This document shows, in pieces, positions 5,328 through 63,194 of a DNA stretch of 64,000 nucleotides. The translations under genes were made by a program, and so were the position numbers. This stretch comes from Minisyncoccota bacterium. GTDB lineage: Bacteria > Patescibacteriota > Minisyncoccia > Phycocordibacterales > UBA9973. Under the pieces are notes generated by a model, which did no database searches, was not told the origin of the DNA, and was given only the letters and a program-made list of their open reading frames with translations. The first letter of the stretch is position 1. Each line of letters starts with the position of its first letter. The DNA lies in the NCBI GenBank assembly GCA_028718635.1, contig JAQULK010000001.1:88626-152625 (forward strand), in the 5' to 3' direction.

Positions 5328-5383
5328 GGATCACGTTAGAGATAGAGGGTCGCTGCGATCCCTCGCGATCTCTAACGTGATGG
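5328..5383. repeat. palindromic element related to family A (CACGTTAGAGAT...ATCTCTAACGTG)
   Basis: Terminal inverted repeats enclose a GC-rich inner palindrome AGAGGGTCGCTGCGATCCCTCGCG. Intergenic, between the ClpA-like gene and rny. Confidence 0.6.
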
Positions 5384-7147: not shown

Positions 7148-7252
7148 CTTAGAAATATAACTTTTGAAGGGGTTTCGAGCGCGACGGCGCGAGAACTTCA
7201 GGATTTTTTTCACCAGAAAAAAATCCGTACCGAAAAAAGTTTATATTTTAAG
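7148..7252. repeat. ~105-bp inverted-repeat-bounded element (family D, copy 1)
   Basis: Shares core GGGGTTTCGAGCGCGACGGCGCGAGAACTTCAGGA...TCCGTACCG with 18395..18507. Ends are AT-rich inverted repeats. Internal hairpin GGATTTTTTTCACCAGAAAAAAATCC. Confidence 0.6.
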
Positions 7253-13311: not shown

Positions 13312-14514
13312 ATGATGTTTTACAAACACTGCAAAAATTATACAGTCGAGAGCGTGACCTCCGGCCACCCGGATAAAATCTGTGATCAAATATCAGATGC
13401 TATTTTAGACGCTTATTTAAAGTTAGACCCGAAAAGCCGAGTGGCTATAGAAACCTTTGGCGGACATGGTCGCCTTGTTATTGGTGGAGAAGTAACATCC
13501 CTCGGGCATAGTCCTACGGGCGAGCCAAAAGGAAAAGTAAATTATGTGCAAATAGCGCGAGATGTTTATAAAAAGATTGGCTACACAGACAAGCTTGAAA
13601 TCTCTGCCAATATAGTCACTCAGTCTCCAGACATTGCTTTAGGAGTAGACACAGGCGGTGCTGGAGACCAAGGCATCATGTATGGATATGCCACTGATGA
13701 AACGCCTGAGTTTCTACCAAAAGGAATAGTGTTGGCGCACAAACTTGCAAAACAATTAGAAGAAATGAGAAAAAGTGGAAAAATAAAATGGCTCAGGCCC
13801 GATGGAAAAACGCAAGTCACTTATACCAATGGGAAATTAAATACTGTACTAGTTAGCACCCAACATTCTCCAAATATTAAACTGGAAGAAATAAAAAAGG
13901 AAATTACAAAAAAAGTGATATTACCCTTACTCTCCAAAGAAGAAAGAAAAAGGGCCTGTCCCGTTAGAGGCCACGAGGGCTCGCAGTGTGTCTCTGCCTC
14001 TAATGGGATAAAAATTTTAGTAAATCCAACGGGTAAATTTACTGCTGGCGGTTTCGAAGCGGACACCGGTCTAACTGGAAGAAAAATAATGATAGATACT
14101 TATGGCGGGCTCGTTCCGCACGGAGGCGGATGTTTCTCTGGGAAAGATGCCACCAAAGTAGACCGCTCTGGCGCTTATATGGCGCGTTTTGTCGCCAAAA
14201 ATCTCGTAGCAAACGGATACGGCAAAGAAGCCTTAGTGTCTGTCGCCTACGCTATCGGAATGGCAGAACCCTTGATGATAGAAGCCATAAATGAAAAAGG
14301 TGAAGATTTGTCAAAAGTAGTCCGAGAGCATTTTGATTTCAAACCGCTTGCCATAATAAAAAAACTTGGTCTTCAAAATCCTATTTATGAGCAAACCGCT
14401 ACCTATGGCCATTTCGGTAAAAAAAATCTCCCGTGGGAAAAGATTTGTCCCGTTAGAGGCCGCGAGGGCTCGCAGCGACCCTCTGCCTCTAACGGGATTG
14501 AAAAAACAAAATAA
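13312..14514 (+). CDS. metK: S-adenosylmethionine synthetase carrying two in-frame family A repeat insertions
   Basis: ESVTSGHPDKICDQISDAILDA, GGGCFSGKD and ATYGHFG motifs. Repeat copies 13959..14008 and 14447..14497 encode CPVRGHEGSQCVSASNG and CPVRGREGSQRPSASNGIEKTK. Confidence 0.85.
   Translation: MMFYKHCKNYTVESVTSGHPDKICDQISDAILDAYLKLDPKSRVAIETFGGHGRLVIGGEVTSLGHSPTGEPKGKVNYVQIARDVYKKIGYTDKLEISANIVTQSPDIALGVDTGGAGDQGIMYGYATDETPEFLPKGIVLAHKLAKQLEEMRKSGKIKWLRPDGKTQVTYTNGKLNTVLVSTQHSPNIKLEEIKKEITKKVILPLLSKEERKRACPVRGHEGSQCVSASNGIKILVNPTGKFTAGGFEADTGLTGRKIMIDTYGGLVPHGGGCFSGKDATKVDRSGAYMARFVAKNLVANGYGKEALVSVAYAIGMAEPLMIEAINEKGEDLSKVVREHFDFKPLAIIKKLGLQNPIYEQTATYGHFGKKNLPWEKICPVRGREGSQRPSASNGIEKTK
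13959..14008. repeat. family A palindromic element (CCCGTTAGAGGC...GCCTCTAATGGG) inside metK
   Basis: Inverted-repeat termini. Internal CACGAGGGCTCGCAG. In-frame within the coding region. Confidence 0.8.
14447..14497. repeat. family A palindromic element at the metK 3' end
   Basis: Near-identical to 62844..62895. Extends the metK C-terminus by about 22 codons. Confidence 0.8.
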
Positions 14515-18246: not shown

Positions 18247-18394
18247 CCCAGTACTAAAATTTTAAAATTAATAATATTATAAAAAGGACTTATCTCGTAC
18301 GACGTTATATTTTTCTAAACTTTTATATAATAAAAATTTAGTACGGGACAGGTGTATATAGTATAGCAAATTTTTGAAACTTGTCGCAGGCGTT

Positions 18395-18507
18395 AGAAGT
18401 TTGGAAAATAGTTTTCGCAGGGGTTTCGAGCGCGACGGCGCGAGAACTTCAGGAATTTTTAAGCTTCAAAAATTCCGTACCGGAGAAAACTTATTTTCCA
18501 AACTTCT
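18395..18507. repeat. family D element, copy 2
   Basis: 22-bp inverted repeats AGAAGTTTGGAAAATAGTTTTC / GAAAACTTATTTTCCAAACTTCT. Core identical to copy 1. Abuts the rpsO stop codon. Confidence 0.65.
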
Positions 18508-18769
18508 ACGCTAGATCCATTTTCTTCATCAAAGCTGTGTAGCGAGGTTTGCTTTTGCGTTCCAAATATTTTAAATGAGTGCGCCTGTCGGCTACCATCT
18601 TGATCAACCCTCGACGAGAATGATTGTCCTTTTTGTGTTTCTTTAAATGTTTTGCCAGTTCGGAAATCTGAGTAGATAAAATAGCCACTTGCACTTCTGA
18701 AGAGCCTGTATCCTTGTCATGAATTTGATTTTTCTTTATAACTGTTTGCTTTTTCTTTGTATTTAACAT
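18506..18769 (-). CDS. rpsO: 30S ribosomal protein S15
   Basis: 87 aa with the S15 pattern ([20 protein letters not shown]). Confidence 0.9.
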
Positions 18770-21997: not shown

Positions 21998-22120
21998 ATC
22001 CCGTTAGAAGTCTCCTAGTTAAACAAAGTCACAAAGAGTGATATAATAAGTTTGTATTTTTTATAGTCGTTATTAATAAATTAACTAACGGAAATCTAAA
22101 GATTTCCTACTTCTAACGGG
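21998..22120. repeat. family A element (~120 bp, CCCGTTAGAAGTCTCC...TCCTACTTCTAACGGG)
   Basis: Fills exactly the gap between the xth stop and the ATG of the downstream gene. Confidence 0.75.
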
Positions 22121-22738
22121 ATGAAAGCAGCTAGATTAGAAACTCTTGCAGACGGCATTTTTGCCATCGTGATGACAATCTTGGTTTTTCAAATTAGGCC
22201 GCCGGTTTTGGTGGATCCTACGAATGCCAAAGAACTTGCCTTCGCGATAAAACACATGCTCCCGATTTTCCTTAGTTATCTTTTAAGTTTTTCTCTGCTT
22301 TTTTCTTATTGGCGGGCACATCATTTCTTTGTTTCAGTTTATGCGAAAAATATTGACGTCAATCTGACGAATCTTAATGCGATTTTTTTCTTATTCCTCG
22401 CGCTTATTCCTTTTTCCACTTCTCTGCTCGGAGAGTATAGCAACAATCAATTTTCAATAGTTATTTTTGGCATTCATACCGTCATTATGGGTTTTTGTCT
22501 TTTTGCCATTCGCAGTTATGTGTTTAACTCCGATCATATAAAAAATATCGATGTCAGCAGACAAGAAATACGCCGTGGTACTGTCCGAACCTTTGTGCCT
22601 GTGGTTTTCGGTTTATTGGCAATTGTTCTTTCTTTTTTCAACAATTATCTATCTCTCGTTCTCTTTACCCTCGCTGTGATTTTCAACTTTTCTCAAACAA
22701 GTACTGTCTTTATAGATAAATTTATCAAAAATCTATAG
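22121..22738 (+). CDS. DUF1211/TMEM175-like membrane protein
   Basis: RLETLADGIFAIVMTILVFQI matches the RxxxFSDGV motif, followed by further TM helices. Confidence 0.65.
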   Translation: MKAARLETLADGIFAIVMTILVFQIRPPVLVDPTNAKELAFAIKHMLPIFLSYLLSFSLLFSYWRAHHFFVSVYAKNIDVNLTNLNAIFFLFLALIPFSTSLLGEYSNNQFSIVIFGIHTVIMGFCLFAIRSYVFNSDHIKNIDVSRQEIRRGTVRTFVPVVFGLLAIVLSFFNNYLSLVLFTLAVIFNFSQTSTVFIDKFIKNL

Positions 22739-25911: not shown

Positions 25912-27594
25912 TTACTTCACTCCATGTTTCGTGTGTAGTTTTTTTACCTCTTCTTCTTCTAATTCTTCTTTTTTTTCTTTTCCGCGCAGACCGAGAGTTT
26001 TGAGTTCCGCATCCCCAAGCATATTTAAAGATTTTACCAATTCAGACAAATGTTCCACGGTATTTTTCTCCGGGGCATCCAGCACTTCTTCGAGCAACGC
26101 ATGCAAAATCCACCCCATCCGCGGTCCGGAAGTTATTCCGAGTTCTTTTATCATAAATTCTCCGTTGATTTTTAGCTGTCCGACAGAAATCGGATCCCTC
26201 AAAGCCTCCTCGATCATGGCAAAATATTTTCGAAGCCGATACGGGGCTTCTTTCTTTTTCATTCCCACCCTGTCGCACTCACGGACATCCATTAAAAGCC
26301 AAATATTTTCTTTGCCGACTTTTGTAATAATTCTTCGCACTGCCGAAAGTGTGATCAATTCCGTATCGGAAAAAAACATATGATTGCGCACAAGCTTGGA
26401 CACCAATTCAATTTCTTTTTTAGGAAATTTTAATCTCTCCATTATTTTTTTTGCCATTCGCGCCCCGACAACTTCATGCCCGTAAAAAGTAAATTTCTTT
26501 TTAGCTTTTAAAGACGAAGACGGGGAAATAAATTTGCTTTCGCGGGGTGTCTCGCAGGCTGACGAGCCGAGAGGCAGCGCTGTGCGAGCACGCACAGACA
26601 GCGACCCCGAGAAAGCAGAATTTATTTCCCCGTCTTGTTTCCCTGCAAGTCTTCTAGCTCGCGGTTTCCCAATATCATGAAAAAGCGCTGCGAGCCTTAT
26701 TTCTAAAGACCAATTCTTGTTCGCTGCATGTTGCAATGCAAGTAATGAATGATTCCAAACATCATAAATATGCTCCCCCCCTTGTTCACAATCCACGCCT
26801 TCGAGTAATTCAGGAATTATATTTTTTAACAAATTAAATTTCTGAAGCATTAGCACTCCAGAAGAAGCATTGGCACTAGTTGTTATTTTTACAAATTCAT
26901 CTCGGATTCTTTCCTCAGAAATTTTTTTTATTAATTCCGAATTTTTCAAAATACTTTCCGTTGTTTCTTGCGCAATAAAAAAATTAAGTTGGCAAGAGAA
27001 ACGCACCGCGCGCAACATCCGAAGAGCATCTTCGGCAAAGCGGTCATCTGGATCCCCTACCGCTTTTAACGTCTTGTCCTTAATGTCCTTTATGCCGTCA
27101 AACAAATCTACGAGGTGTCCTTTAGGGCTTAAGGCCATTGCATTGACTGTAAAATCACGTCTCTTGAGGTCATCCTCTAACTTATCACTGAATTTTACCT
27201 CATCAGGATGCCGAAAATCGCTGTATTTTGCCTCTGTTCTATATGGAGTAACTTCAATTATGAAATTATGGGATGTTTCACGAATAACGTCTTGTATTTC
27301 CCCCTCTCCTTTACAAGGAGAGGGTTGGGGTGAGGTTCCCAATGTTTCACGGGAAACAACCACTGCGACCGTTCCAAACGTATTTTCATATACAGTCTTC
27401 TCAAAAAGCCCTATTATTTGTTCCGGTTTTGCATTCGTCGTGACATCCCAGTCGTTTGGTATTTTATCCATTAAAAGATCTCGAACACACCCGCCAACTA
27501 AATATGCCTCAAATCCGGCCTTTTCGAGCGTATTTGTTACATGTGAAACTTCTTTGGGGATTTTGGATATTAAGTTTTTAGTTATTGAATCCAC
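25912..27594 (-). CDS. cca: CCA-adding tRNA nucleotidyltransferase with HD domain, carrying two in-frame palindromic insertions
   Basis: GGCVRDLLM and RRDFTVNAMA (polymerase head). HD motif LFHDIGKP. Insertions at about 27296..27345 and 26518..26625. Confidence 0.85.
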   Translation of the reverse strand: MDSITKNLISKIPKEVSHVTNTLEKAGFEAYLVGGCVRDLLMDKIPNDWDVTTNAKPEQIIGLFEKTVYENTFGTVAVVVSRETLGTSPQPSPCKGEGEIQDVIRETSHNFIIEVTPYRTEAKYSDFRHPDEVKFSDKLEDDLKRRDFTVNAMALSPKGHLVDLFDGIKDIKDKTLKAVGDPDDRFAEDALRMLRAVRFSCQLNFFIAQETTESILKNSELIKKISEERIRDEFVKITTSANASSGVLMLQKFNLLKNIIPELLEGVDCEQGGEHIYDVWNHSLLALQHAANKNWSLEIRLAALFHDIGKPRARRLAGKQDGEINSAFSGSLSVRARTALPLGSSACETPRESKFISPSSSLKAKKKFTFYGHEVVGARMAKKIMERLKFPKKEIELVSKLVRNHMFFSDTELITLSAVRRIITKVGKENIWLLMDVRECDRVGMKKKEAPYRLRKYFAMIEEALRDPISVGQLKINGEFMIKELGITSGPRMGWILHALLEEVLDAPEKNTVEHLSELVKSLNMLGDAELKTLGLRGKEKKEELEEEEVKKLHTKHGVK

Positions 27595-30918: not shown

Positions 30919-31290
30919 GTGGATAACCCCCACACCTTTTGTTTTATACCTTCAGGTCATATAATGATTATTATGTATTATATATATGTTCTAAAAAGCA
31001 TAAAAGATGATAAATTATATATCGGTTCGACTAATGACCTGAAGCGAAGACTTTCGGAACACAACAATGGATTTAATCGTTCAACAAAAGCTAGGCGACC
31101 ATTTGAACTTCGCTATTATGAAGCTTGTGCCAATGAACATGATGCTAGAACTAGAGAATATAATTTAAAAAAAGATGGAAAAGCGCTTGGGCAACTAAAA
31201 AGAAGGATTTCCGAAAGTCTTAAATAAATCCCCACAACCTATTTGGATAGGTGTGGGGATAAAACGAAAGGTGTGGGGGATAACCCTTTT
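30919..31290. mobile_element. GIY-YIG gene bounded by inverted repeats (family B: TGTGGATAACCCCCACACCTTT / AAAGGTGTGGGGGATAACC)
   Basis: Inverted repeats at 30921..30942 and 31270..31290 enclose one small GIY-YIG ORF. A solo derivative lies at 61068..61216. Confidence 0.6.
30964..31227 (+). CDS. small GIY-YIG nuclease-family protein
   Basis: YYIYVLKS...KLYIGSTNDLKRRLSEHN pattern. Start placed after the inverted repeat. Confidence 0.65.
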   Translation: MIIMYYIYVLKSIKDDKLYIGSTNDLKRRLSEHNNGFNRSTKARRPFELRYYEACANEHDARTREYNLKKDGKALGQLKRRISESLK

Positions 31291-33733: not shown

Positions 33734-35809
33734 GTGGATATAGAAGAAAAACATCTAAAAGGTCTAAATAGTGAGCAAAAAGAAGCGGCGCTTCATATGA
33801 AGGGACCGCTTTTGATTATTGCCGGAGCGGGAGCTGGGAAAACAAAAACGATTACGCACAGAATTGTAAATCTTATAAAAAACGGCGTGTCTCCCGATAA
33901 AATTTTGGCAGTGACCTTCACTAATAAGGCCGCTAAAGAAATGCGAGAGAGAATTATTTTAGAAATTAATAAAAACGCAAAAGGTCAAGAAAAAATTCCT
34001 TTCGTTTCCACTTTTCATTCTCTGGGAGTTTATATAATAAAAGAAAACGCCCGACTGCTCGGACTGACGAGATATTTTACTATTTTAGACGAAGGAGACG
34101 CGACCACTCTTATAAAAAATATTTTAAAAGAGCTTAGCATAGACCCGAAGCAATATGATCCAAAAAAAATAAAAAATATAATCTCGCGGGAAAAAGGAAA
34201 ATTTACAAATCTAACGGATTATATGGAGAAAGCCCTCTCCTTCGGGGAGGGTTGGGAGGGGTCTCTGGGTAAAATTACAGCTCAAGTTTGGAATTTGTAT
34301 GAAAAACAAAAAATGAAAGAGAATTCTTTAGACTTCGATGATCTGCTCTTAAAAGCGGTAAAACTACTGAAAGAAAACGAGGAAATTAGAAAAATATATC
34401 AAGAAAAATGGGAATATATCCACATTGATGAATATCAGGACACGAACGAAGCGCAATATTTGATGTCTAAATTACTTTCCGAAAAAAGTGGAAATATTTG
34501 CGTAGTCGGGGATGCCGATCAAAATATATATTCTTGGCGCGGAGCAAATTTGAAAAACATTCTGAATTTTGAAAAAGATTACCCGAATACAAAAATAATT
34601 TTGTTGGAACAAAATTACAGGTCTACAAAAAATATTCTAGAGGCGGCAAATGAAGTAATTAAGAAAAATAAATATAGGCCGGATAAAAATTTGTTTACGA
34701 AAAACATTGAAGGCGAAAAAATAGGCTTCTATGAAGCCCTAGACGAAACCGATGAAGCTGAATTCGTCGCCACAAAGATTATGGAGATACTAGACAGCGG
34801 GGCAGACTTGCTTTTTCGGGGTGTCTCGCAGGCTGACGAGCCGAGAGGCAGCGCTGTGCGAGCACGCACAGACAGCGACCCCGCAAAAGCAGAGTCTGCC
34901 CCGCTGTCTGAAATAGCCGTTTTGTATCGCGCAAATTTTCAATCGCGGGCGCTCGAAGAAGCGATGCTTCGGTACAATATTCCTTACCAAGTTTTAGGGG
35001 TTAAATTTTTTGAAAGAAAGGAAATAAAAGACACTCTCGTTTATTTGCGTGCAGCTCTCAATCCCGATAGCCTGTCTGATATAAAAAGGATCATTAATTT
35101 CCCATCGAGAGGCATTGGAAAAGTAACCTTGATGAAAATCTTTGCCGGCCAAAGAGAAACCCTGCCGGTAAAAATGCAAATAAAAATTAATAGTTTCTAT
35201 GAAACATTGGAAGAGATAAAGGAGAAAATAAATGATTTAAAAACAAGCGATCTCATAAAATTCGTAATAAAAAAGTCCGGAATTGAAACAGAACTTTCCT
35301 CTGGCACTGAAGAAGATATGGAAAGATTAGAAAACATCAAAGAGCTCGCCACCCTTGCGCTCAAATATGACAATCTAAAAAATGGAGCGGGTATAGAAAA
35401 ACTTTTAGAAGATGCCTCGCTTGCTTCAGATCAAGACTCTTTAATAATAAATCAAGAAAAGAAAGAAATAAAAAATGCGGTAAAATTAATGACAGTACAT
35501 GCTTCAAAAGGCCTTGAATTTGAATATGTTTTTGTTGTTGGATTAGAAGACGGGCTTTTTCCGCACGAGAGAATGGGAGACAGCCCAGCCTCCGCACAAG
35601 GCTTCGGCGAGACGCAGGAGGAAGAAAGAAGGCTTTTTTATGTGGCACTTACCCGCGCAAGGAGAAAATTATTTTTATCATTTGCGAATTTCCGCACTAT
35701 TTTCGGTTCGCGCAACATCAACGCTCCTTCAGAATTTATTTCTGATATTCCAGCAGATTTATTTGAAAGGGAAGGCGAAGATAGCGGGATAAAAACAATT
35801 TATTTATAA
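33734..35809 (+). CDS. uvrD: UvrD/PcrA-family ATP-dependent DNA helicase with two in-frame palindromic insertions
   Basis: Motif I AGAGAGKTKTITHR, DEYQDTN, and motifs V/VI. Insertions at about 34228..34268 and 34800..34905. Confidence 0.85.
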   Translation: MDIEEKHLKGLNSEQKEAALHMKGPLLIIAGAGAGKTKTITHRIVNLIKNGVSPDKILAVTFTNKAAKEMRERIILEINKNAKGQEKIPFVSTFHSLGVYIIKENARLLGLTRYFTILDEGDATTLIKNILKELSIDPKQYDPKKIKNIISREKGKFTNLTDYMEKALSFGEGWEGSLGKITAQVWNLYEKQKMKENSLDFDDLLLKAVKLLKENEEIRKIYQEKWEYIHIDEYQDTNEAQYLMSKLLSEKSGNICVVGDADQNIYSWRGANLKNILNFEKDYPNTKIILLEQNYRSTKNILEAANEVIKKNKYRPDKNLFTKNIEGEKIGFYEALDETDEAEFVATKIMEILDSGADLLFRGVSQADEPRGSAVRARTDSDPAKAESAPLSEIAVLYRANFQSRALEEAMLRYNIPYQVLGVKFFERKEIKDTLVYLRAALNPDSLSDIKRIINFPSRGIGKVTLMKIFAGQRETLPVKMQIKINSFYETLEEIKEKINDLKTSDLIKFVIKKSGIETELSSGTEEDMERLENIKELATLALKYDNLKNGAGIEKLLEDASLASDQDSLIINQEKKEIKNAVKLMTVHASKGLEFEYVFVVGLEDGLFPHERMGDSPASAQGFGETQEEERRLFYVALTRARRKLFLSFANFRTIFGSRNINAPSEFISDIPADLFEREGEDSGIKTIYL
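34800..34905. repeat. ~100-bp GC-rich palindromic element shared with cca (26518..26625)
   Basis: Core GGGGTGTCTCGCAGGCTGACGAGCCGAGAGGCAGCGCTGTGCGAGCACGCACAGACAGCGACCCC is identical at both loci. Short inverted flanks. In-frame in both host genes. Confidence 0.8.
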
Positions 35810-35813
35810 ATAT

Positions 35814-36695
35814 ATGATACACAAAGCAAAAAAATCCCTAGGGCAAAACTTTTTAAAATCTGAAATGGCCTTAAAAAAAATTGTTGAAGCCGGGGAAGTA
35901 AAAAAGAGCGATATAGTTTTAGAAATAGGACCAGGCAAAGGAGCGCTCACGTCTAAACTTTTAGAAAAAGCAAAAACTGTAATTGCGGTAGAGAAGGACC
36001 GCGAACTTTTTGAATTTTTAAAAGAAAAATTTAAAAAAGAAATAAAATCAAAATCTCTCCTCTTGATACAGGGAGATATTTTGGAGTTCGACCCCCTCTT
36101 AATCTCCCCCTTGGCAGGGGGAGAGGGAACAATTAACTACAAAATTATCGCCAACATTCCTTACAATATTACTGGTGCAATTTTGAAAAAGTTTTTGACG
36201 GCAAAAAATCAACCGGAGAGGATGATTTTAATGGTCCAGCACGAAGTGGCTAAACGCATAATGGCTCGCGACCCACGCCACGGCGGGGCAGGTGGCAAAG
36301 AAAGCATTCTTTCAATTTCGGTCAAAGCTTACGGTGAACCAAAGATGATTATGAAGGTGAATAAAAGATATTTTTCTCCTGCACCAAAAGTTGACTCAGC
36401 TATAATTGCGATAAAAAATATTTCTAGGGAAAGATTCACCTTATCCCAAAATTCACCTCACCCCAACCCTCTCCTTATTAAGGAGAGGGAGACATTTGAA
36501 GAAAAATTCTGGGAAATAGTAAAGACTGGTTTTGCACATAAAAGGAAAAAACTCTCCAGCAATCTAAAGAATGTTTGCCAAAGTGTTTGCCAAAGCAAGG
36601 CTTTGGCAAACTTGGGAAATAAAAGAGCTGAGGATTTAACTCTTAACGACTGGATTATGCTGACTAAAGGGGAGATGAGCCGACCATCGGAGTAA
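35814..36695 (+). CDS. rsmA: 16S rRNA (adenine1518/1519-N6)-dimethyltransferase
   Basis: LGQNFL and EIGPGKGALT motifs. Two in-frame GC-rich palindromic insertions encoding DPLLISPLAGGEGT and NSPHPNPLLIKERET. Confidence 0.85.
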   Translation: MIHKAKKSLGQNFLKSEMALKKIVEAGEVKKSDIVLEIGPGKGALTSKLLEKAKTVIAVEKDRELFEFLKEKFKKEIKSKSLLLIQGDILEFDPLLISPLAGGEGTINYKIIANIPYNITGAILKKFLTAKNQPERMILMVQHEVAKRIMARDPRHGGAGGKESILSISVKAYGEPKMIMKVNKRYFSPAPKVDSAIIAIKNISRERFTLSQNSPHPNPLLIKERETFEEKFWEIVKTGFAHKRKKLSSNLKNVCQSVCQSKALANLGNKRAEDLTLNDWIMLTKGEMSRPSE

Positions 36696-43803: not shown

Positions 43804-44346
43804 ATGACTGAAAAATCAAAAAAATTAATACAAGAGGAAATGTTGAATCTGCCAAAAGAAGCGCAAGATGCCATCAATGCTTCAAATTGGGAAAAACAAT
43901 CTGAAGAAATTGGAAAAAAATACTTACTGAATGAGGATGAAATTTATACTTTTCAACTAGAAACAGCTTGTTTTTTACTTGGTCTTATTGATGAAGATCA
44001 ATACCAAAAAAATATCGAAGATGGCATAGGCACCAGTAAAGCTGAAGCAGAAAAAATATCTGAAGAAGTAATACAGAAAATACTTATTCCTATCAATGAT
44101 CTTTTTGTAAAAAATATTAAAAAAAGCGATAAGGTAAAAAACGCAACGGCTGAGCAAAATCTTAATTTTATTTTATCCGGCGGGGATTATACGGCGTTTT
44201 TGGATGTTCCTCCTCTCGTTGATAAGGAGGGGAATGAGGGGAGGTTCTTAACTAATTCAAATTCACCTCACCCCGACCCTCTCCTTAGTAAGGAGAGGGG
44301 GAATACTGAAGAAACAGTCTTACCAGCCTTTTTTATTAAAAAATAA
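43804..44346 (+). CDS. hypothetical protein (paralogue of the next gene)
   Basis: 180 aa. N-terminus similar to 44364..44957. Carries an in-frame palindromic insertion encoding SNSPHPDPLLSKERGN. Confidence 0.45.
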   Translation: MTEKSKKLIQEEMLNLPKEAQDAINASNWEKQSEEIGKKYLLNEDEIYTFQLETACFLLGLIDEDQYQKNIEDGIGTSKAEAEKISEEVIQKILIPINDLFVKNIKKSDKVKNATAEQNLNFILSGGDYTAFLDVPPLVDKEGNEGRFLTNSNSPHPDPLLSKERGNTEETVLPAFFIKK

Positions 44347-44978: not shown

Positions 44979-45258
44979 ATCCCGTTAGAGATCACTTATG
45001 TTTTATTACACATATATTTTAAAAAGTAAGAAGGACGGTAAAATTTACACTGGATATACGCAAGACCTACGGAAGCGCCTGAATCAGCATAATAAAGGTT
45101 TATCTACATATACGAAAGGACGAGGCCCATTTATTTTGATATACTATGAAGGGTGTCTATTAGAAAGTAAAGCGAAGTCGAGAGAATTATTTTTAAAATC
45201 GGGAATGGGCAAGCGTTATCTAAAAAATAGATTAGGCGCTTCCTATCTCTAACGGGAT
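44979..45258. mobile_element. GIY-YIG gene bounded by perfect 14-bp inverted repeats ATCCCGTTAGAGAT / ATCTCTAACGGGAT (family A archetype)
   Basis: The inverted repeats directly flank the 84-aa GIY-YIG ORF. Termini match the solo family A repeats. Confidence 0.7.
44998..45252 (+). CDS. small GIY-YIG nuclease-family protein
   Basis: YYTYILKSKKDGKIYTGYTQDLRKRLNQHN. Confidence 0.7.
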   Translation: MFYYTYILKSKKDGKIYTGYTQDLRKRLNQHNKGLSTYTKGRGPFILIYYEGCLLESKAKSRELFLKSGMGKRYLKNRLGASYL

Positions 45259-45721
45259 GCAATTCAAAGTTCCACAATTTTTAGACATTGAAGATAAAAT
45301 ATTCGGCCCTTTTACTTTTAGGGAATTTGTTTATTTAGCCGGCGGGGCAGGCTTGTGTTTTATTCTTTATAAATTGCTGGGTCTTATTTTAGGAATAATA
45401 CCCATTTTAGCTGTCGCGGGATTTTCGCTCGCTCTTACTTTTTACAAACCAAATAATAAACCATTTATTAATATAATAGAATCAGGTTTTAAGTATTTTA
45501 CCCAAAATAAACTTTATATTTGGAAGAAAAAAGCAAATAAAACCACCTCTTCCCCCGCCTTCTCCAAAGGAGAAGGAGCCCTCTCCTTCGGGGAGGGTTT
45601 GGGAGGGGTAAACAAAATTCAAATGATGCATCCAGGCAGTTCCCCGTTGAGTGGGAGCAAGTTACGAGACTTGGCTTGGAGTTTAGATGTGCTGGACTTG
45701 AGTAAGCAACAATCCCGTTAG
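45257..45721 (+). CDS. PrgI-family (VirB3-analogue) membrane protein
   Basis: MQFKVPQFLDIEDKIFGPFTFREFVYLAGGAG followed by two TM helices. Lies immediately upstream of VirB4. In-frame palindromic insertion near the C-terminus. Confidence 0.55.
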   Translation: MQFKVPQFLDIEDKIFGPFTFREFVYLAGGAGLCFILYKLLGLILGIIPILAVAGFSLALTFYKPNNKPFINIIESGFKYFTQNKLYIWKKKANKTTSSPAFSKGEGALSFGEGLGGVNKIQMMHPGSSPLSGSKLRDLAWSLDVLDLSKQQSR

Positions 45722-45833
45722 AAGCCGCGGTCGCAGTTTAAAAAATATAAATATGTTAAATAGAAAAATAAAAATTAATAGAATAACAAAGCATAATCAC
45801 GGTCTGTTGACCGCGACCTGCTTCTAACGGGAT
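45711..45833. repeat. family A element (GAAGC subtype)
   Basis: Left inverted repeat contains the TAG stop of the PrgI-like gene. Right inverted repeat ends ...TAACGGGATG, giving the ATG of the next ORF. Inverse-orientation copy at 61725..61805. Confidence 0.75.
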
Positions 45834-46470
45834 GGCCTTAAACGCAAAAGCAACTCAAGAATTTGTCCCGATCAAGGAAGTCCGCGATGGAATCGTTGTA
45901 TTAAAAAACGACGAACTGCGAGCTATTGTCCTAGCCAATTCTGTCAACTTAGCCTTAAAATCTTCCGACGAACAACAGGCAACAATAATGCAATTCCAAA
46001 ATTTTCTTAACACTTTGGATTTTTCTGTGCAAATATCGATTCAATCAAGAAGACTGGACATTAGACCGTATCTTTTGCTTTTGGAAAACAGAATCAAGGT
46101 GCAAAATGAGCCTCTTTTAAAATTACAAACCAAAGAATATATAGACTTCATCAGAAATTTTACTGACTCAGTGGCAATAATGACCAAAAACTTTTTTGTA
46201 GTAGTGCCTTACACTCACACTGCCTTAAAATCAGACTCTGGAATCTTGGATAAAATATTTTCTAGAAAAAATAAAGAAGAAATAAAAGCTGCCAAACAAA
46301 TAGCCTTTGAAGAAAAAAGATCCCAATTGGAAGAAAGAGTGGCGGTCATTCAGCAAGGACTCTCTAGTTGCGGTATAAATTCAGCGCAGCTCGGCACCGA
46401 AGAAGTAGTGGAAGTATTTTATAAGGTTTTCAATCCGGGAGAGATAGAAGGGAAGATTAAAGTAGAATAG
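45832..46470 (+). CDS. VirB4/TraE-type ATPase, N-terminal segment
   Basis: FVPIKEVRDGIVVLKND...NLALKSSDEQQATIMQFQNFLNTLDFSVQISIQ resembles Gram-positive VirB4 N-termini. Confidence 0.5.
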   Translation: MALNAKATQEFVPIKEVRDGIVVLKNDELRAIVLANSVNLALKSSDEQQATIMQFQNFLNTLDFSVQISIQSRRLDIRPYLLLLENRIKVQNEPLLKLQTKEYIDFIRNFTDSVAIMTKNFFVVVPYTHTALKSDSGILDKIFSRKNKEEIKAAKQIAFEEKRSQLEERVAVIQQGLSSCGINSAQLGTEEVVEVFYKVFNPGEIEGKIKVE

Positions 46471-46509: not shown

Positions 46510-48369
46510 ATGCAAAATAAAATGAGTATCTTAGAAAACATTAAAAAATTATTTGGAAAAGAAAAAAGAGACGATAATGAAGAAACACAAGCTTCTGTTT
46601 TGGCCGTCTTGCCGGAAAAGATCTATGAGTCTGCCAATCTTGAACTTCAAGATGTCATAGCGCCGTCAGCCTTAAAAATTGACCCGAAATCCATAAATTT
46701 AGGAAACAAAATCGCCCGTACTTTTTTTATAATATCTTATCCGAGATATTTAACAGATAATTGGTTTTCTCCGATAATCAATTTGGATAAAATTTTTGAT
46801 ATTTCAATATTCATCCACCCCATAGACACTTCTCTCATGTTGCGGCAATTCCAGAAAAAAGTGGCTGAAGTTCAAAGCCAGATAAGCGTCCGAGAAGCAA
46901 AAGGGATGGTACGCGACCCGATGCTGGACACTGCTTATGAAGATTTGGAAGGGCTTCGCAATAATCTGATCCAAGCGCAAGAAAAGATGTTCGATGTGGG
47001 AGTTTACATTACGATTTATGCAGATAATGAATTAGAGCTATTTAAAATTGAAAATGAAATAAAATCAATGCTCGAATCGAAGCTCATATACATCAAGCCG
47101 GCGCTTTTCCAGCAAGAAGAGGGTTTTAAAAGCGTTATTCCAATAGAAACAGACTTATTGAACATCCATCAAAAATTAAACTCTGAGCCTCTTTCTAGTG
47201 TTTTTCCATTTATTTCCTCTGATCTTACTTCCGACAAAGGAATACTTTACGGTATCAACAGAAATAACTCGTCCCTCGTTATTTTCGACCGGTTCAGCTT
47301 AGAGAATTATAACTCCGTGACCTTTGCTAAATCAGGTTCTGGAAAATCTTATGCGGCAAAATTAGAAATTTTAAGATCATTAATGTTTGACACTGATGTC
47401 ATCGTAATAGATCCAGAAAGAGAGTACGAATTTTTAGCTGAAACTGTCGGCGGACGCTATTTTAATATTTCACTTTCCTCAGATCACCATTTAAATCCCT
47501 TTGATTTGCCAATACCTCGTGAAGATGAAACAGTGGAGGATGTATTGCGTTCAAATATTATAAACTTAGTGGGGCTTTTCAGGCTGATGCTAGGCGGACT
47601 CACCCCGGAAGAAGATTCAATGGTGGACCGAGCTATTTCAGAAACTTATGCTATGAAAGACATCACCCCGGAATCAGATTTTTCAAACATCGAACCTCCT
47701 CTTCTTTCAGATTTCGAAATGGTGCTCTCTGGGATGGAAGGAAGCGATTCGGTCATCGCCAGACTGGCAAAATACACCCGAGGCTCTTGGTCAACCTTCT
47801 TAAATAGACCGTCTAATGTAGATATCAACAAAAAATTCGTGGTTTTTTCTGTCCGTGATATGGAAGACGAATTAAAACCGGTAGCCATGTATATCATAAT
47901 GCATTACATTTGGAATGCGATAAGAAAGAATCTTAAAAAAAGACTTCTCGTAGTGGACGAAGCCTGGTGGATGATGAAATCTGAAGATACGGCTTCATTT
48001 CTTTATTCAATCGCAAAAAGAGGCAGAAAATATTATTTAGGTCTTTCCACTATTACCCAAGACGCAGCTGACTTTATGAAATCTCCATATGGCGTACCAA
48101 TAATCACCAACTCTTCCATTCAACTTCTCTTGAAACAATCGCCTACCACTATTGATATTCTGCAAAAAACCTTCAACCTCACTGATGAGGAAAAATATTT
48201 GCTTCTAGAATCCGGACTAGGGGAGGGTATATTTTTCGCAGGATTAAAGCACGTCGCTATAAAAATAGTTTCTTCTTATACTGAGGACCAGATCATTACC
48301 TCTGATCCTTCGCAAATATTATTAAACAAAAAAGCCAGAGAGGAGCAGGAGGCGAAGGATATGGTATAA
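46510..48369 (+). CDS. VirB4/TraE-type type IV secretion ATPase (central and ATPase domains)
   Basis: YPRYLTDNWF...ISIFIHPID. Walker A AKSGSGKSY. Walker B LLVVDEAWWM. Confidence 0.8.
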   Translation: MQNKMSILENIKKLFGKEKRDDNEETQASVLAVLPEKIYESANLELQDVIAPSALKIDPKSINLGNKIARTFFIISYPRYLTDNWFSPIINLDKIFDISIFIHPIDTSLMLRQFQKKVAEVQSQISVREAKGMVRDPMLDTAYEDLEGLRNNLIQAQEKMFDVGVYITIYADNELELFKIENEIKSMLESKLIYIKPALFQQEEGFKSVIPIETDLLNIHQKLNSEPLSSVFPFISSDLTSDKGILYGINRNNSSLVIFDRFSLENYNSVTFAKSGSGKSYAAKLEILRSLMFDTDVIVIDPEREYEFLAETVGGRYFNISLSSDHHLNPFDLPIPREDETVEDVLRSNIINLVGLFRLMLGGLTPEEDSMVDRAISETYAMKDITPESDFSNIEPPLLSDFEMVLSGMEGSDSVIARLAKYTRGSWSTFLNRPSNVDINKKFVVFSVRDMEDELKPVAMYIIMHYIWNAIRKNLKKRLLVVDEAWWMMKSEDTASFLYSIAKRGRKYYLGLSTITQDAADFMKSPYGVPIITNSSIQLLLKQSPTTIDILQKTFNLTDEEKYLLLESGLGEGIFFAGLKHVAIKIVSSYTEDQIITSDPSQILLNKKAREEQEAKDMV

Positions 48370-51740: not shown

Positions 51741-51832
51741 TATTTCCTCTCCCCCTTAATAAGGGGGAGACTGTGAGGGGGTTCTTAATTAATTCACCTC
51801 ACCCCAGCCCTCTCCTTATTAAGGAGAGGGGG
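51741..51832. repeat. compound GC-rich palindromic element (family C)
   Basis: CTCCCCCTTAATAAGGGGGAG, TTCACCTCACCCC and CCCTCTCCTTATTAAGGAGAGGG. Same compound as the insertion in 43804..44346. Ends at the jag stop codon. Confidence 0.7.
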
Positions 51833-52357
51833 CTAAATTCCACCCACGTATTTGATCACCACTCGGCGATCGCGCCCGAAACCTATGGATTCGGTTTTAA
51901 GGTCATTTGATTCAGATAAAAATTCATGAACGATTCTGCGTTCGAAGGCTGACATTGGGTCAACTTCTATATTAGACTTAAAATATCTCGCTCTTTCAGA
52001 CATCATATGGGCTATTGCACGGATATTCTCAACATGTTTTTTTTGAAAACCGTTTATATCTATAATAACAGACCCTCCCCCAACCCCTCCCTTGGCAGGG
52101 AGGGGGGTCCCTTCTCCCCCTGCTAAGGGGGAGTGCCCGAAGGGCGGGGGGGTCTTAGCTTCTATTATTCTATGAACAAGGTGGCTTAACGCGTGCAAAC
52201 CCTCACCATCACGCCCAATAAAGAAATGTGGCTCGACAACCTCTATGGAAACCCATACATTTTTATGCCCATCATCAACTATTGAAATTCCATTTAGTTT
52301 TACTGTAGTTTTTTCAATTAAGTCTTTTATTAAATTTTGAATCTCTTCTTTTTCCAT
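51833..52357 (-). CDS. jag: Jag/KhpB (KH + R3H) RNA-binding protein
   Basis: R3H motif ERRIVHEFL. In-frame double-palindrome insertion encoding PPPFGHSPLAGGEGTPLPAKGGVGGGS. Confidence 0.8.
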   Translation of the reverse strand: MEKEEIQNLIKDLIEKTTVKLNGISIVDDGHKNVWVSIEVVEPHFFIGRDGEGLHALSHLVHRIIEAKTPPPFGHSPLAGGEGTPLPAKGGVGGGSVIIDINGFQKKHVENIRAIAHMMSERARYFKSNIEVDPMSAFERRIVHEFLSESNDLKTESIGFGRDRRVVIKYVGGI

Positions 52358-52477
52358 CCCGTTAGAAGCAGATCGCGATCAACTCGCGTATCTGCCATAT
52401 TAAGTTATTAATTTTATTAATATTTGATTTCATGTTTTGTTTGTTTTTAAATTGCGATCGCGGCTTCTAACGGGATC
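52356..52477. repeat. family A element (GAAGC subtype)
   Basis: Fills the yidC-jag spacer. One end supplies the jag ATG (CTAACGGGATG on the minus strand). The other ends 5 nt before the yidC stop. Confidence 0.75.
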
Positions 52478-53250: not shown

Positions 53251-53544
53251 TTACTTCACAGAATCAATGTGATTTTTTTGCCAAGGATGGCAACGCAGAA
53301 TGCGTTTCAACCCTAAATAAATTCCTTTCCATGCGCCATATTTTTCTATCGCTTGTTTGGTGTATTCAGAACAAGATGGATAAAAAACACAAGTGTTCGC
53401 TTTCAAAAAAATTGAAATGTTTTTTTGATAAAAATTAATCCCGTTAGAAGCCGCCCTCGCTAGTAAGCGAGTGCTACAGTCACCCTGGGGCGACTTGCTT
53501 CTAACGGGATTAATTAAGTTTTGAAAGAATTGTTTTAATTTCAT
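53251..53544 (-). CDS. yidD: membrane protein insertion efficiency factor YidD with in-frame family A repeat
   Basis: C.FYPSCSEY...RILRCHPW signature. N-terminal residues [24 protein letters not shown] are encoded by repeat 53438..53512. Confidence 0.7.
53438..53512. repeat. family A element inside the yidD 5' region
   Basis: CCCGTTAGAAGCCGCCCTCGC...GCGACTTGCTTCTAACGGGAT. Right end abuts the rnpA stop codon. Confidence 0.75.
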
Positions 53545-61067: not shown

Positions 61068-61216
61068 ATGTGGATAACCCCCACACCTTTCTTGATATCA
61101 CTTTTTATTCTTTAAATAAAACGTTAAGCAGGATAGTTTTTTAAGAGAAAATATTAATAAAATAATATTTTTACTGAAAAAGTAGAATAATATCAAGAAA
61201 GGTGTGGGGGATAACT
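61068..61216. repeat. solo family B element with 21-bp perfect inverted repeats CCCCCACACCTTTCTTGATAT
   Basis: Termini match the GIY-YIG element at 30919..31290. No ORF inside. Abuts the ruvC stop. Confidence 0.7.
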
Positions 61217-61724
61217 AAAACTTTATGTGTGCAAAGGCTGTCAGAGCTATAGCGATAGCATCCAATTCATCATCAGATGTTTTTATTTTATCTATATCCA
61301 CCAAAATTTTTACCATTTTTATTATTTGTTCTTTGTTGGCTTTTCCATAGCCAGTAGTGGCAATTTTTATTTGGGGAGGAGAAGCTTCAAATATTTTTAG
61401 TCCTGCACAGGAGGCTTCGTATATCACTACTCCGCGCGCTTCAGCGACCTTCATCACTGTCTTATGATTAGTATTTAAAAATAAAGTTTCAATAGCTAAA
61501 ATTTCTGGTTTGTATTTGCTAATTACTTTATTGACCTCTGTGCCTATTAAATGTAAACGCTCACTAAATTCTAATTTAGCCGGAGTCTTAAAACATTTGG
61601 AAAAAATTACTTTTTCCTTACCCTGAAGTCCCCGCCTGCCGGATGGGCAGGTTGCCTCAGTGGTTCGTTCTAGCACTGCTATTCCCAATCGCTCATATCC
61701 TGGATCTATCCCTAAAATCATCAT
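61215..61724 (-). CDS. ruvC: crossover junction endodeoxyribonuclease RuvC with in-frame palindromic insertion
   Basis: ILGIDPG...AIETLF...DELDAIAIALT. Extra segment TTEATCPSGRRGLQGKEK is encoded by palindrome CCTGCCGGATGGGCAGG. Confidence 0.8.
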   Translation of the reverse strand: MMILGIDPGYERLGIAVLERTTEATCPSGRRGLQGKEKVIFSKCFKTPAKLEFSERLHLIGTEVNKVISKYKPEILAIETLFLNTNHKTVMKVAEARGVVIYEASCAGLKIFEASPPQIKIATTGYGKANKEQIIKMVKILVDIDKIKTSDDELDAIAIALTAFAHIKF

Positions 61725-61805
61725 CCCGTTAGAAGCAGGTCGCGGTCAGACCGTGACTACTTAAATTAATATTATTAAAATTGCGACCGCGGCTTCTAAC
61801 GGGAA
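61725..61805. repeat. family A element (inverse copy of 45711..45833)
   Basis: Occupies exactly the 81 bp between the ruvB stop (TGA 61806..61808) and the ruvC ATG. Confidence 0.8.
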
Positions 61806-62828
61806 TCATAATAATTTTTCTTGATTTTTCTTAACATCAAAATCCAAATGCTCATAAGCTTTATTTGTGGCTATTCTTCCGCGGGCGGTGCGCTCTAGTA
61901 AACCTAGCTGGATTAGATATGGCTCGATGACTTCTTCTACGGTCGCTTCTTCTTCCGACATTGCCGCAGCAATAGTTTTCAACCCCACTGGTCCGCCATT
62001 AAATTTCTCAATTAATATTTCTAAAAATTTTCTATCAGAAGAATTCAAGCCGATATCATCAATGGCGAGCATATTTAGCGCATCTCTCACGGTTTTCTGG
62101 TTCAAAAGTTTTTTATTATTCTTCTCATATACCTGAGCAAAATCCCGACAGCGTTTCAAAAAGTAATTTGCTGTGCGGGGAGTAAATCTGCTTCTCTTGG
62201 CTATTTCTTTTAGAGCATCTTCATCTAAAACTATTTTTAAAAGATTGCTTGATCTTTTTACTATTTCTCCAATTTCTTCATTGGAATAAAATTCCAATCT
62301 AAAAACTCCGCCGGAGAAACGGGAACGAAGCGGAGAAGAAACCATTGCTACTCTGGTAGTCGCCGCGATCAAAGTAAAAGGTGGCAAGTCGAGCTGGATG
62401 GTGCGCGCCGAAGGACCTTTGCCGATGATAATATCTAAAACCCCGGACTCCATCGCAGGGTAAAGTATTTCCTCAACCATTTTATTGAGCCGATGAATTT
62501 CGTCGATAAAAAGAATATCGCCAGACGCTAAATTTGTCAGGATGGAAGCCAAGTCGCCAACTTTTTCAATTGCCGGACCAGAAGTGATTTTCATCTGTCT
62601 GCCTGTCTCTTTGGCAATTAAATGCGCTAAGGTAGTTTTTCCCAATCCTGGAGGTCCGTAAAAAAGAATGTGTTCGGGGGTGTGTCCGCGTTCAAGAGCC
62701 GCCCGCAACAAGATTTTTACATTGTCTTTTATGTGTTTTTGGCCGATATATTCATTCCACTTCGTGGGGCGGAGAGTCTGATCTAGAAAAGAGTCATCTG
62801 TTGTTTCTTTTTTTATGTCTTTATTCAT
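61806..62828 (-). CDS. ruvB: Holliday junction branch migration helicase RuvB
   Basis: GPPGLGKTTLA, DILFIDEIHRL. Winged-helix C-terminus. Confidence 0.9.
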   Translation of the reverse strand: MNKDIKKETTDDSFLDQTLRPTKWNEYIGQKHIKDNVKILLRAALERGHTPEHILFYGPPGLGKTTLAHLIAKETGRQMKITSGPAIEKVGDLASILTNLASGDILFIDEIHRLNKMVEEILYPAMESGVLDIIIGKGPSARTIQLDLPPFTLIAATTRVAMVSSPLRSRFSGGVFRLEFYSNEEIGEIVKRSSNLLKIVLDEDALKEIAKRSRFTPRTANYFLKRCRDFAQVYEKNNKKLLNQKTVRDALNMLAIDDIGLNSSDRKFLEILIEKFNGGPVGLKTIAAAMSEEEATVEEVIEPYLIQLGLLERTARGRIATNKAYEHLDFDVKKNQEKLL

Positions 62829-62843: not shown

Positions 62844-62895
62844 ATCCCGTTAGAGGCCGCGAGGGCTCGCAGCGACCCTCTGCCTCTAACGGGAT
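62844..62895. repeat. family A element (GAGGC subtype)
   Basis: Near-identical to 14447..14497. Lies 16 bp upstream of the ruvB ATG. Confidence 0.8.
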
Positions 62896-63194
62896 TGACA
62901 TTGATTTTATTATATGCTATATTGTGAGCGTAGTACATTTATCAACAGGGTATCAACATAGCTATCAACATTATAGCATTTGCTTGATTAAGCATATAGT
63001 ATAATTACAAAAGAGAAAGTTTTTGTTGATATTTAAATAAGGCATTAATCTCTAAGCAATCAGCCATAGGTTATATGAATTTGCGTAGGACGTTTTGGGG
63101 CTTTAATTAGTTTCTGGAGCTATCCTATAATATTTTATTACTTTCGGAGCTCAGCTCTGAAAGGATTGTTTAGAGATTAATGCTTTTTTTGTTC

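Follow-up and report, generated by a model that had tools for sequence, protein, structure and literature searches.

How does an 81-bp sequence come to fill exactly the space between two housekeeping genes of a bacterium? We examined this question for the ruvB–ruvC junction in a contig of a Minisyncoccota bacterium, within a window of 64,000 nt (the whole stretch of DNA that was analyzed). On the minus strand, ruvB stops at TGA (61808-61806), ruvC starts at ATG (61724-61722), and the element that we call E10 occupies the space between. A sequence-only reading had proposed an 81-bp element at this place, which was borne out with the position shifted by 1 bp. E10 belongs to a group of inverted-repeat sequences, family A, with 10 clear copies in the window. 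Taken as a whole, the best explanation (with a probability of about 0.7) is that family A comprises tiny transposable elements of the candidate phyla radiation (CPR)/Patescibacteria, characterized by start-codon insertion, translational coupling, and mobility conferred by a nuclease. Copies are numbered E1 to E11, coordinates are those of the window, and L and P numbers designate loci and proteins of relatives.

Insertion at start codons and reconstruction of the ATG

Two empty sites in relatives prove insertion and target duplication. For the focal copy, the site was found through a RuvC homologue (P0123, 86% identical) at locus L219, where ruvB and ruvC overlap by ATGA and run uninterrupted (..AAATTATTATGAGAATTCTGGG.., or ..AAATTATTATGAGAATTCTGGGAATAGATCC). 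The minus strand of the window reads ..AAATTATTATGAT[81 bp]TGATGATTTTAGGG.. at this junction, equivalent to ..AAATTATTATGAT[TCCCG..81 nt..CGGGA]TGATGATTTTAGGGATAGATCC, with a 4-bp direct repeat around E10 (TGAT on the minus strand, ATCA on the plus strand). Removal of E10 and one TGAT restores exact colinearity with the L219 junction (MRILGID vs MMILGID), from which it follows that the insertion of E10 duplicated 4 bp. The second empty site corresponds to E9. At this position L014, a syntenic contig of a related species that is ~80% identical in coding DNA, reads GATAAAAGTTAATTAATTTTTG, and the window reads GATAAAAATTAA[71 bp]TTAATTAAG with TTAA duplicated. Both empty sites, with the operons intact, agree with the earlier suggestion that the element inserts without inactivating operons. 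Exact-protein look-ups of the RuvC and RuvB of the window returned no match. The closest RuvC relative, P0121 (L216-L218), could not be used as an empty site owing to an unrelated 360-nt insert at its ruvB/ruvC junction (L217, 2141-2500). Junctions occupied by family A in the window also hold other sequences in relatives: yebC sits between ruvB and ruvC in L220 (1936-2472), and an inverted-repeat element, AATTACGAATTACGAAT...ATTCGTAATTCGTAATT, lies between prgI and traC in L014 (10680-10813).

The start codon of the host gene is rebuilt from two sources. The element contributes its terminal A only and the TG belongs to the duplicated target, contrary to the initial view that the element brings the start codon. 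The original host ATG persists as a second copy in the left duplicate, which also retains the TGA of the upstream gene where that gene ended in an ATGA overlap. The native TGA of ruvB and that of the Exo_endo_phos gene are preserved in this manner, and yidC still ends at its native TAG, located 8 nt upstream of E8. Contrary to what had been supposed, the element does not normally supply the upstream stop. Only PrgI uses the left-repeat TAG (45719-45721, in E7), which had been read correctly; the native stop is lost in the window, where PrgI ends in ..SKQQSR (..KKQK in L014). The ATG of the adjoining VirB4 N-terminal ORF, previously credited to the right end of the same copy, takes only its A from the last base of E7 (45832). 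The repeat had also been read as a stop in one direction; the right-repeat TAA is the stop of the element's own ORF and not of a host gene.

Family A ends follow the pattern T-CCCGTTAGA(A/G)G...C(T/C)TCTAACGGG-A. The 12-mer CCCGTTAGAAGC, allowing at most one mismatch, has 15 matches in the window compared with 0.19 expected by chance, and the 10 clear copies were defined from these matches. The terminal inverted repeats (TIRs) are perfect over 13-14 bp, with variant copies altered in both arms together. Five of the 10 copies abut a real start codon, and a TAACGGG-ATG junction opens the gene at each (22121, 45257, and 45832, and on the minus strand 52357 and 61724), including the three junctions already noted at DUF1211, PrgI, and jag. 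The more general statement that elements sit exactly at gene boundaries holds for these five but not for the three copies in frame inside genes or for E11, which lies 16 nt off. E1 occupies a divergent clpB-like/rny intergenic region, and the ATG made there opens only 10 codons. E7 and E10 are the same type of element on opposite DNA strands, as had been read, but they do not differ in orientation relative to their genes; E10 aligns with the longer E7 as a deletion derivative. The insertions at jag (E8) and prgI (E6) are also present in L014, and the presence or absence of copies varies between close relatives. Family A is almost certainly a mobile element that inserts at start codons.

We surveyed element ends beyond the window in two ways. 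A genome scan with an alignment of the nuclease described below, retaining one genome per species, gave 80 loci, nearly all of which have an ORF bracketed by TCCCGTTAGAG...CTCTAACGGGA. These loci hold 73 full-size and 28 small elements, with a modal length of 278 bp and a modal duplication of 4 bp. The right end of the full-size elements reads A followed by TG in 59 of 73 cases, and in 54 of these 59 the ATG begins an ORF that is 60 or more codons long or leaves the locus. A metagenome scan employed the orientation-specific right arm CTGCTTCTAACGGGA with the flank unconstrained, yielding 55 small elements with a left end; TG follows in 48, most ATGs open ORFs longer than 100 codons, and most duplications are TGAA, TGGA, or TGAG preceded by A. 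Pooling public genomes and metagenomes gave 201 unique elements. An ATG spans one end in 159 of them, with the element always oriented alike relative to the gene and at distance 0 from the ATG, which supports the sequence-only reading. Exact 4-bp duplications flank 109 of the 201, led by TGAA (82), TGGA (31), TGCA (10), and TGAG (9), with a left-flank consensus of A-T-G-R-A. Given that a minority of sites are TTAA, CTAA, TAAA, or TTGA, the general target appears to be T-N-N-A. Persisting copies nonetheless lie overwhelmingly at start codons of the form A-TGNA, split after the A, and in one orientation relative to the gene.

Several genomes carry multiple copies at different genes (L018, L021, and L025), and L055 shows a tandem insertion into a regenerated ATGAA. 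The L055 tandem (2984-3385) consists of a full copy and a mini copy in a metagenome-assembled genome (MAG) of Woesearchaeota, a DPANN archaeon. In MAGs labeled Clostridia, Desulfobacteraceae, Scalinduaceae, and Omnitrophica (L073, L078, L089, L090, and L095), C..G termini replace T..A. Occurrences outside CPR point to movement of the element between phyla and domains or, alternatively, to contamination during binning. No nuclease copies were found in IMG/VR viral contigs, leaving carriage by phages unsupported.

Three copies, E2, E3, and E9, have lengths for which length + 4 is a multiple of 3, and copies of this kind may persist inside genes as in-frame peptide insertions. Within metK, E2 (..KRA[CPVRGHEGSQCVSASNG]IKILVNPTGKF) amounts to 18 codons with one 4-bp duplicate and the flanking split codon, and E3 near the C-terminus (..PWEKI[CPVRGREGSQRPSASNG]IEKTK, then the stop) is an 18-codon insertion with one 4-bp duplicate. 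E9 with one duplicate forms a 25-codon in-frame insertion in YidD, followed by FYQK; YidD of L014 reads MKLRLYLQKLINFYQK, without the insertion.

Coordinates of family A copies, their open reading frames, target duplicates, and second-lineage features in the 64,000-nt window
Feature	Position	Strand	Description
E10 (focal)	61724-61804	-	81 bp, from T to A; located where the ruvB stop and the ruvC start overlap by ATGA
Upstream TGAT duplicate of E10	61805-61808	-	Holds the ruvB TGA (61808-61806) and, with 61809, the original ATG
Downstream TGAT duplicate of E10	61720-61723	-	With the E10 terminal A (61724) gives the ruvC ATG
E10 mini-ORF	61729-61809	-	26 codons, MIPVRSRGRNFNNINLSSHGLTATCF; spans the entire element, beginning at the original ATG and ending at the right-repeat TAA
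E1	5331-5380		50-bp variant, TCACGTTAGAGAT..ATCTCTAACGTGA, compensating change in both arms; duplication TGGA
E2	13959-14008	+	Degenerate 50-bp copy, in frame inside metK
E3	14448-14497	+	50 bp, in frame near the metK C-terminus; 100% identical to E11
E5	21999-22121	+	123 bp, non-autonomous, where the Exo_endo_phos gene and DUF1211/TMEM175 overlap by ATGA; duplication TGAA
E6	44980-45257	+	278 bp, full-length, before prgI; flanking duplication TGCAA (5 bp)
E6 nuclease ORF	44998-45252	+	84 aa, YhbQ/UPF0213/Slx1 type; stop TAA inside the right inverted repeat
E7	45713-45832	+	120 bp, non-autonomous, between prgI and the TraC-like ORF; target duplication absent
E7 mini-ORF	45753-45827	+	MLNRKIKINRITKHNHGLLTATCF, ends at the right-repeat TAA
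E8	52357-52475	-	119 bp, non-autonomous, at the start codon of jag, with yidC upstream; TGGA duplicated (minus strand)
E8 mini-ORF	52362-52433	-	MKSNINKINNLIWQIRELIAICF, ends at the right-repeat TAA; kept as an ORF in L014
E9	53439-53509		71 bp, at the rnpA/yidD overlap; duplication TTAA
E11	62845-62894		50 bp, 16 nt upstream of the ruvB ATG; duplication TTGA
Second-lineage full element	30923-31283	+	Inverted ends ATAACCCCCACACCTTT / AAAGGTGTGGGGGATAA
Second-lineage nuclease ORF	30973-31227	+	84-aa GIY-YIG protein, 48% identical to the E6 nuclease
Second-lineage ORF-less copy	61074-61214		Same CCCCCACACCTTT ends, abuts the ruvC stop (61215-61217)

The neighboring genes were assigned by Pfam as RuvB (61806-62828, minus strand), RuvC (61215-61724, minus strand), YidC, Jag/R3H, PrgI, TMEM175/DUF1211, and Exo_endo_phos. 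The VirB4 N-terminal ORF at 45832 has no Pfam match in the window, and its orthologues carry TraC-like. VirB4 is split in both the window and relatives, here into a TraC-like N-terminal ORF (45832-46470) and a P-loop ORF (46510-48369). In L010, a full GIY-YIG element (1501-1752) lies between the two VirB4 halves, exactly at the start codon of the second. A possible divergent relative of family A may occupy 18391-18511, bracketed by CGTTAGAAGTTTGG...CCAAACTTCTACG; a 61-nt repeat inside this bracket (18400-18460) recurs at 7149-7209 with 87% identity.

The full-length form and its GIY-YIG nuclease

The sequence-only reading regarded all copies as solo elements, but E6 carries a nuclease gene. 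Its 13-bp inverted ends, TCCCGTTAGAGAT and ATCTCTAACGGGA, enclose a single 84-aa ORF, and its terminal A begins the prgI ATG. The encoded protein matches the GIY-YIG family (PF01541; 8.8e-18, 64.8 bits against a cut-off of 22.6) and the UPF0213 structures PDB 1ZG2 (E = 8e-6) and 1YWL. An AlphaFold (AF2) model with a predicted local distance difference test score of 89.9 adopts the Slx1 fold. The nearest structures are those of UPF0213 and Slx1 (7CQ2/7CQ3/6SEI, TM 0.63-0.71), with I-TevI reaching a TM of only 0.42; superposition on Slx1 7CQ3 gives a root-mean-square deviation of 1.5 Å over 71 columns at 30% identity. Residues Y6, Y17, R27, H31, E63, and N77, which we take, by analogy with I-TevI, to be catalytic, are invariant in 14 sequences. 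Slx1, YhbQ, and YazA are treated as one family (PMC7017083). The protein is a single domain, lacking the C-terminal DNA-binding domain of the I-TevI/Seg type.

Relatives of the E6 nuclease number more than 1,150, and the top 120 are all 83-92 aa in length and 81-100% identical, originating from Paceibacterota, Nomurabacteria, Woesebacteria, and Minisyncoccia. Judging from the substitution pattern in 33 intact copies (a nonsynonymous-to-synonymous rate ratio, dN/dS, of ~0.09 at dS ~0.9), the nuclease is under strong purifying selection. The domain and fold matches, many relatives, invariant residues, and low dN/dS together indicate that the predicted nuclease is a functional protein. Based on their sequences, the so-called solo copies are non-autonomous derivatives of the 278-bp nuclease-bearing form, comparable to MITEs (transposable elements of miniature size with inverted repeats), and fall into size classes of about 50, 71-81, and 115-123 bp. 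In 279-bp copies (e.g., L021, 2982-3260; protein P0012), the original host ATG is in frame with the nuclease ORF. Database versions of 92 aa begin with MDPVRDHL, and this extension is the translated target duplicate and left inverted repeat. The left repeat GTTAGAGAT was considered as a -10 box for the nuclease gene and set aside, as it has no conserved final T.

A second nuclease lineage with its own ends is present in the window, both as a full element and as an ORF-less copy. Its nuclease also matches Pfam GIY-YIG (7.6e-19, 68.2 bits). Homologues in unrelated contexts, for instance one adjoining YafQ/RelB (L223) and one upstream of rplJ (L231), share CCCCCACACCTTTCGTTTT...AAAACAAAAGGTGTGGGGG ends. 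Such covariation of nuclease lineage and ends, with mini derivatives in each lineage, resembles the co-evolution of a transposase with its ends and would be hard to explain if the gene were random cargo. As a result of the two insertions on its sides, ruvC is flanked by mini copies of two different families.

We propose that the GIY-YIG protein would be the mobility enzyme, probably structure-selective for a hairpin or cruciform formed by its own ends and capable of a 4-nt staggered cut in the target. That it acts as a transposase is probable, the direct evidence being its association with the element. Our judgment is evenly divided on the broadest form of this proposal, in which family A would represent a new class of prokaryotic DNA transposon. 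Such an element would depend solely on an 84-residue Slx1/YhbQ-type nuclease that recognizes the hairpin/cruciform of its own ends, would at 278 bp be the smallest autonomous element known, and would be specialized for start codons with a built-in coupling cassette. It would include at least two nuclease/end lineages, distributed across CPR and occasionally in DPANN archaea and other phyla.

Translation context and a proposed coupling model

The genes of the window are translated in a setting that is relevant to the position of family A. Shine-Dalgarno (SD) sequences are nearly absent upstream of 49 window ORFs. Many genes instead carry a TAnAAT box, frequently TTAGAAT, that ends 6-8 nt upstream of the ATG (e.g., 1649, 2759, 5307, 44364, and 63860), which suggests widespread leaderless mRNAs. 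For operon-internal genes, the preceding stop abuts or overlaps the next ATG. The SD-like role once considered for the ACGGGA end was rejected, as these genes almost lack SD sequences and use -10 boxes or abutting stops instead. Among 92 clean ATG-type insertions, the upstream ATG copy is preceded by a -10 box in 38.

The right end of the element reads ...TAA-CGGG-A-TG, the final A being its last base and TAA being the stop of the nuclease gene or of a mini-ORF, 4 nt before the host ATG. Small copies encode mini-ORFs of 15-40 codons. An ATG-initiated ORF of at least 15 codons ends at the right-repeat TAA in 34 of 62 mid-size elements, compared with 4 and 4 in the other two frames and 4.8 ± 2.2 (maximum 12) upon shuffling of the interior. 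Lengths that are multiples of 3, which place the upstream ATG in the frame of the TAA, are over-represented (43 of 86 mid-size copies), and all four short elements with such a length have the ORF pattern of E10. The L014 orthologue of E8 keeps a 23-codon ORF despite eight amino-acid changes, with indels outside the ORF only, which argues for selection on being translated and not on the peptide.

All copies are predicted to form RNA hairpins in which a 13-14-bp terminal stem closes the element and the last pair includes the A of the AUG. Folding energies range from -36 to -51 kcal/mol with z-scores from -4.9 to -8.8 (E10, -36.4 and -5.9; E9, -50.8 and -8.8). Copies of the 115-123-nt class share a conserved, polar layout in which the gene always lies on the side of the arm bearing a 4-nt bulge.

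These features are consistent with the following mechanism. Insertion duplicates 4 bp, usually T-N-N-A, and the terminal A with the right duplicate rebuilds the host ATG. Ribosomes translating the element ORF could then open the stem, terminate at UAA, and restart on the host gene 4 nt further downstream. Such reinitiation would be what these genomes already use between adjacent genes, which mostly lack SD sequences and are leaderless or arranged stop to start. The position at the start codon and the fixed orientation would be tolerated because translation of the element ORF hands the ribosome to the host gene. We lean toward this translational-coupling mechanism. The arrangement of mini-ORF and stem offers a directly testable model of SD-independent reinitiation in CPR bacteria.

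Alternative explanations and relation to known systems

Several points weigh against a start-codon transposon that is moved by its nuclease and coupled by translation. We know of no GIY-YIG protein that serves as a DNA transposase and of no insertion sequence (IS) family that uses this enzyme class. Known GIY-YIG enzymes leave 1-2-nt 3' overhangs, not a 4-nt stagger, and the 84-aa protein is a bare catalytic domain without an evident DNA-binding module. A conventional transposase acting in trans from elsewhere in the genome is possible, since 64 kb of about 670 kb was inspected, and the precision at start codons could stem from selection on T-N-N-A insertions instead of enzyme specificity. The common 278-bp form poses a difficulty for translation of the nuclease, whose ORF is not in the frame of the ATG upstream of it. 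Coupling is itself deduced from sequence; about a third of mid-size copies, including E5, have no ATG mini-ORF, and the mini-ORF counts are not independent events because related copies share ancestry. The lack of a known GIY-YIG transposase, the bare domain, and the part of the genome inspected also favor another view, namely that a conventional (e.g., DDE) transposase encoded elsewhere moves the small elements, which would be ordinary MITEs, with the GIY-YIG gene as a passenger or a homing-type selfish gene that invades the multi-copy palindromes. Duplications of 4 bp at T-N-N-A, with a TTAA/CTAA minority, resemble the staggered cuts of DDE enzymes, and the IS5 group (DDE) targets YTAR. We nevertheless consider this view unlikely. 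The 73 ORF-bearing elements of the genome survey all have a size that fits the nuclease (about 267-290 bp, except for two of 393 bp), which leaves no room for another gene. The second nuclease lineage occurs with its own distinct ends in unrelated loci and has its own ORF-less copy, and a mere passenger fits poorly with the purifying selection on the nuclease and with a nuclease stop codon built into the right end.

The elements could also be RNA structures that benefit the host, such as RNase III processing sites or stabilizing hairpins, kept for regulation while mobility is incidental or extinct. Very stable stems that end exactly at the AUG, the fixed orientation relative to the gene, and the retention of the jag and prgI insertions in a species ~80% identical would suit such a role, and where leaderless starts are used, translation could begin on a 5' end generated by processing close to the AUG. 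What makes this quite improbable is the difference in presence and absence among close relatives, the 100% identity of the 14448 and 62845 copies within one genome, the tandem insertion in L055, copies inside essential genes, and the conserved nuclease gene of the full form. Moreover, Rfam 15 gave no match to any copy, by gathering score or at E ≤ 0.5, and a known RNA family or ribozyme was accordingly rejected. An RNA role may coexist with mobility, yet it leaves the spread of the elements unexplained. An intrinsic terminator was likewise dismissed, as the stem is directly followed by an ATG and coding sequence and not by a U run. It is highly improbable that the copies are integron attC sites or repetitive extragenic palindromic (REP) sequences mobilized by REP-associated tyrosine transposases (RAYTs), even though they are imperfect palindromes with GTTAGA...TCTAAC, tightly packed against ORF ends, and the attC core is GTTRRRY / RYYYAAC. 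On either strand GTTAGA comes first and TCTAAC last, the reverse of the attC order (RYYYAAC...GTTRRRY). Housekeeping genes (ruvBC, yidC, jag, and metK), not cassettes, flank the copies; target duplications are present, which attC and REP sequences lack; and the associated gene encodes a GIY-YIG protein, not an integrase or HUH RAYT. No integrase was found among the window ORFs scanned, which were a part of the total.

Among known systems, the nuclease-bearing start-codon element is closest in form to prokaryotic MITEs with an IS partner (Correia/NEMIS and IS630- or IS5-derived elements). Shared traits are the short size, TIRs, target duplication, many copies, tolerance in operons, RNA hairpins, and ends common to a longer ORF-bearing form. 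In contrast to these pairs, the ORF-bearing form of family A is only 278 bp and encodes a GIY-YIG nuclease, which is not a recognized transposase class, rather than a DDE, serine, tyrosine, or HUH transposase; its copies lie at distance 0 from start codons, in fixed orientation, with a mini-ORF ending 4 nt before the ATG. Neither GIY-YIG nor CPR comes up in a 2024 review devoted to prokaryotic MITEs (PMC10969869). Rickettsia palindromic elements also form palindromic in-frame peptide insertions in essential genes (PMC10969869), as family A does twice in metK and once in yidD. They have no sequence relation to family A, for which in-frame copies are a minority, start codons are mostly hit, and an ORF-bearing parent is present.

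Free-standing GIY-YIG homing genes (T4 seg/mob and the I-TevI family) are similarly selfish nuclease genes between co-transcribed host genes, but the family A protein has 84 aa, no DNA-binding domain, and a fold nearer to Slx1/UPF0213. Family A also has inverted repeats, target duplications, and non-autonomous derivatives. A GIY-YIG homing endonuclease was rejected on the basis of the single domain, the many unrelated genes hit in place of a single cognate site, and the 4-bp duplications. YhbQ/YazA/UPF0213 proteins and eukaryotic Slx1 are alike in Pfam domain and fold (1ZG2, 1YWL, and 7CQ3). No such inverted ends flank E. coli yhbQ, which was examined for them; the CPR proteins, by contrast, exist in multiple copies, share 81-100% identity between distant lineages, and always lie within inverted ends particular to their lineage. 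The other transposable elements known to rely on a GIY-YIG nuclease for insertion are the Penelope-like retroelements of eukaryotes, but they are several kilobases long and encode a reverse transcriptase, which family A lacks; the inverted ends of family A, together with a fixed duplication of 4 bp, mark it as a DNA element. Searches of the full-text literature, which did not extend to subscription-only papers, turned up no account of the element or of its end sequence, nor of any GIY-YIG/TIR element in CPR.

Should the nuclease be what moves the element, GIY-YIG would join DDE, HUH, serine, tyrosine, DEDD, and Cas1 as a chemistry of prokaryotic DNA transposons, and the lower size limit for an autonomous mobile element would be reset. 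The widespread YhbQ/UPF0213 family would thereby gain its first functional context. The start codon may be the one harmless spot at which a selfish element can persist in extremely compact genomes, with the ATG rebuilt and translation coupled. In CPR genome annotation, the copies give rise to false N-terminal extensions, as in the nuclease calls of 92 aa that begin with 'MDPVRDHL...', to starts set at the wrong place, and to inserted peptides within essential proteins, MetK and YidD among them.

Further repeats were observed in the window. An 86-nt GC-rich repeat (26534-26619 and 34808-34893, 95% identical) lies inside two long ORFs, one a UvrD-like helicase; it also occurs in L014, holds CTGACGAG...GAAA-like motifs, and may constitute another intragenic repeat family. 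A hairpin repeat family, CCCTCTCC...GGAGAGGG(T)TGGGG(T)GAGGT, is found at 27296-27336, 34231-34261, 36449-36510, 44259-44320, 45577-45607, and 51790-51851. One of these copies lies in the C-terminal part of the PrgI-like ORF, whose product is 15 aa longer than in L014. Adjoining E11 is a 300-nt region without a gene (62895-63194) and without Rfam matches. This region contains three or four DnaA-box-like TATCAACA repeats (62940-63030) and, on the plus strand, a near-consensus TTGACA-17-TATATT promoter, the -35 TTGA of which is the target duplication of E11.

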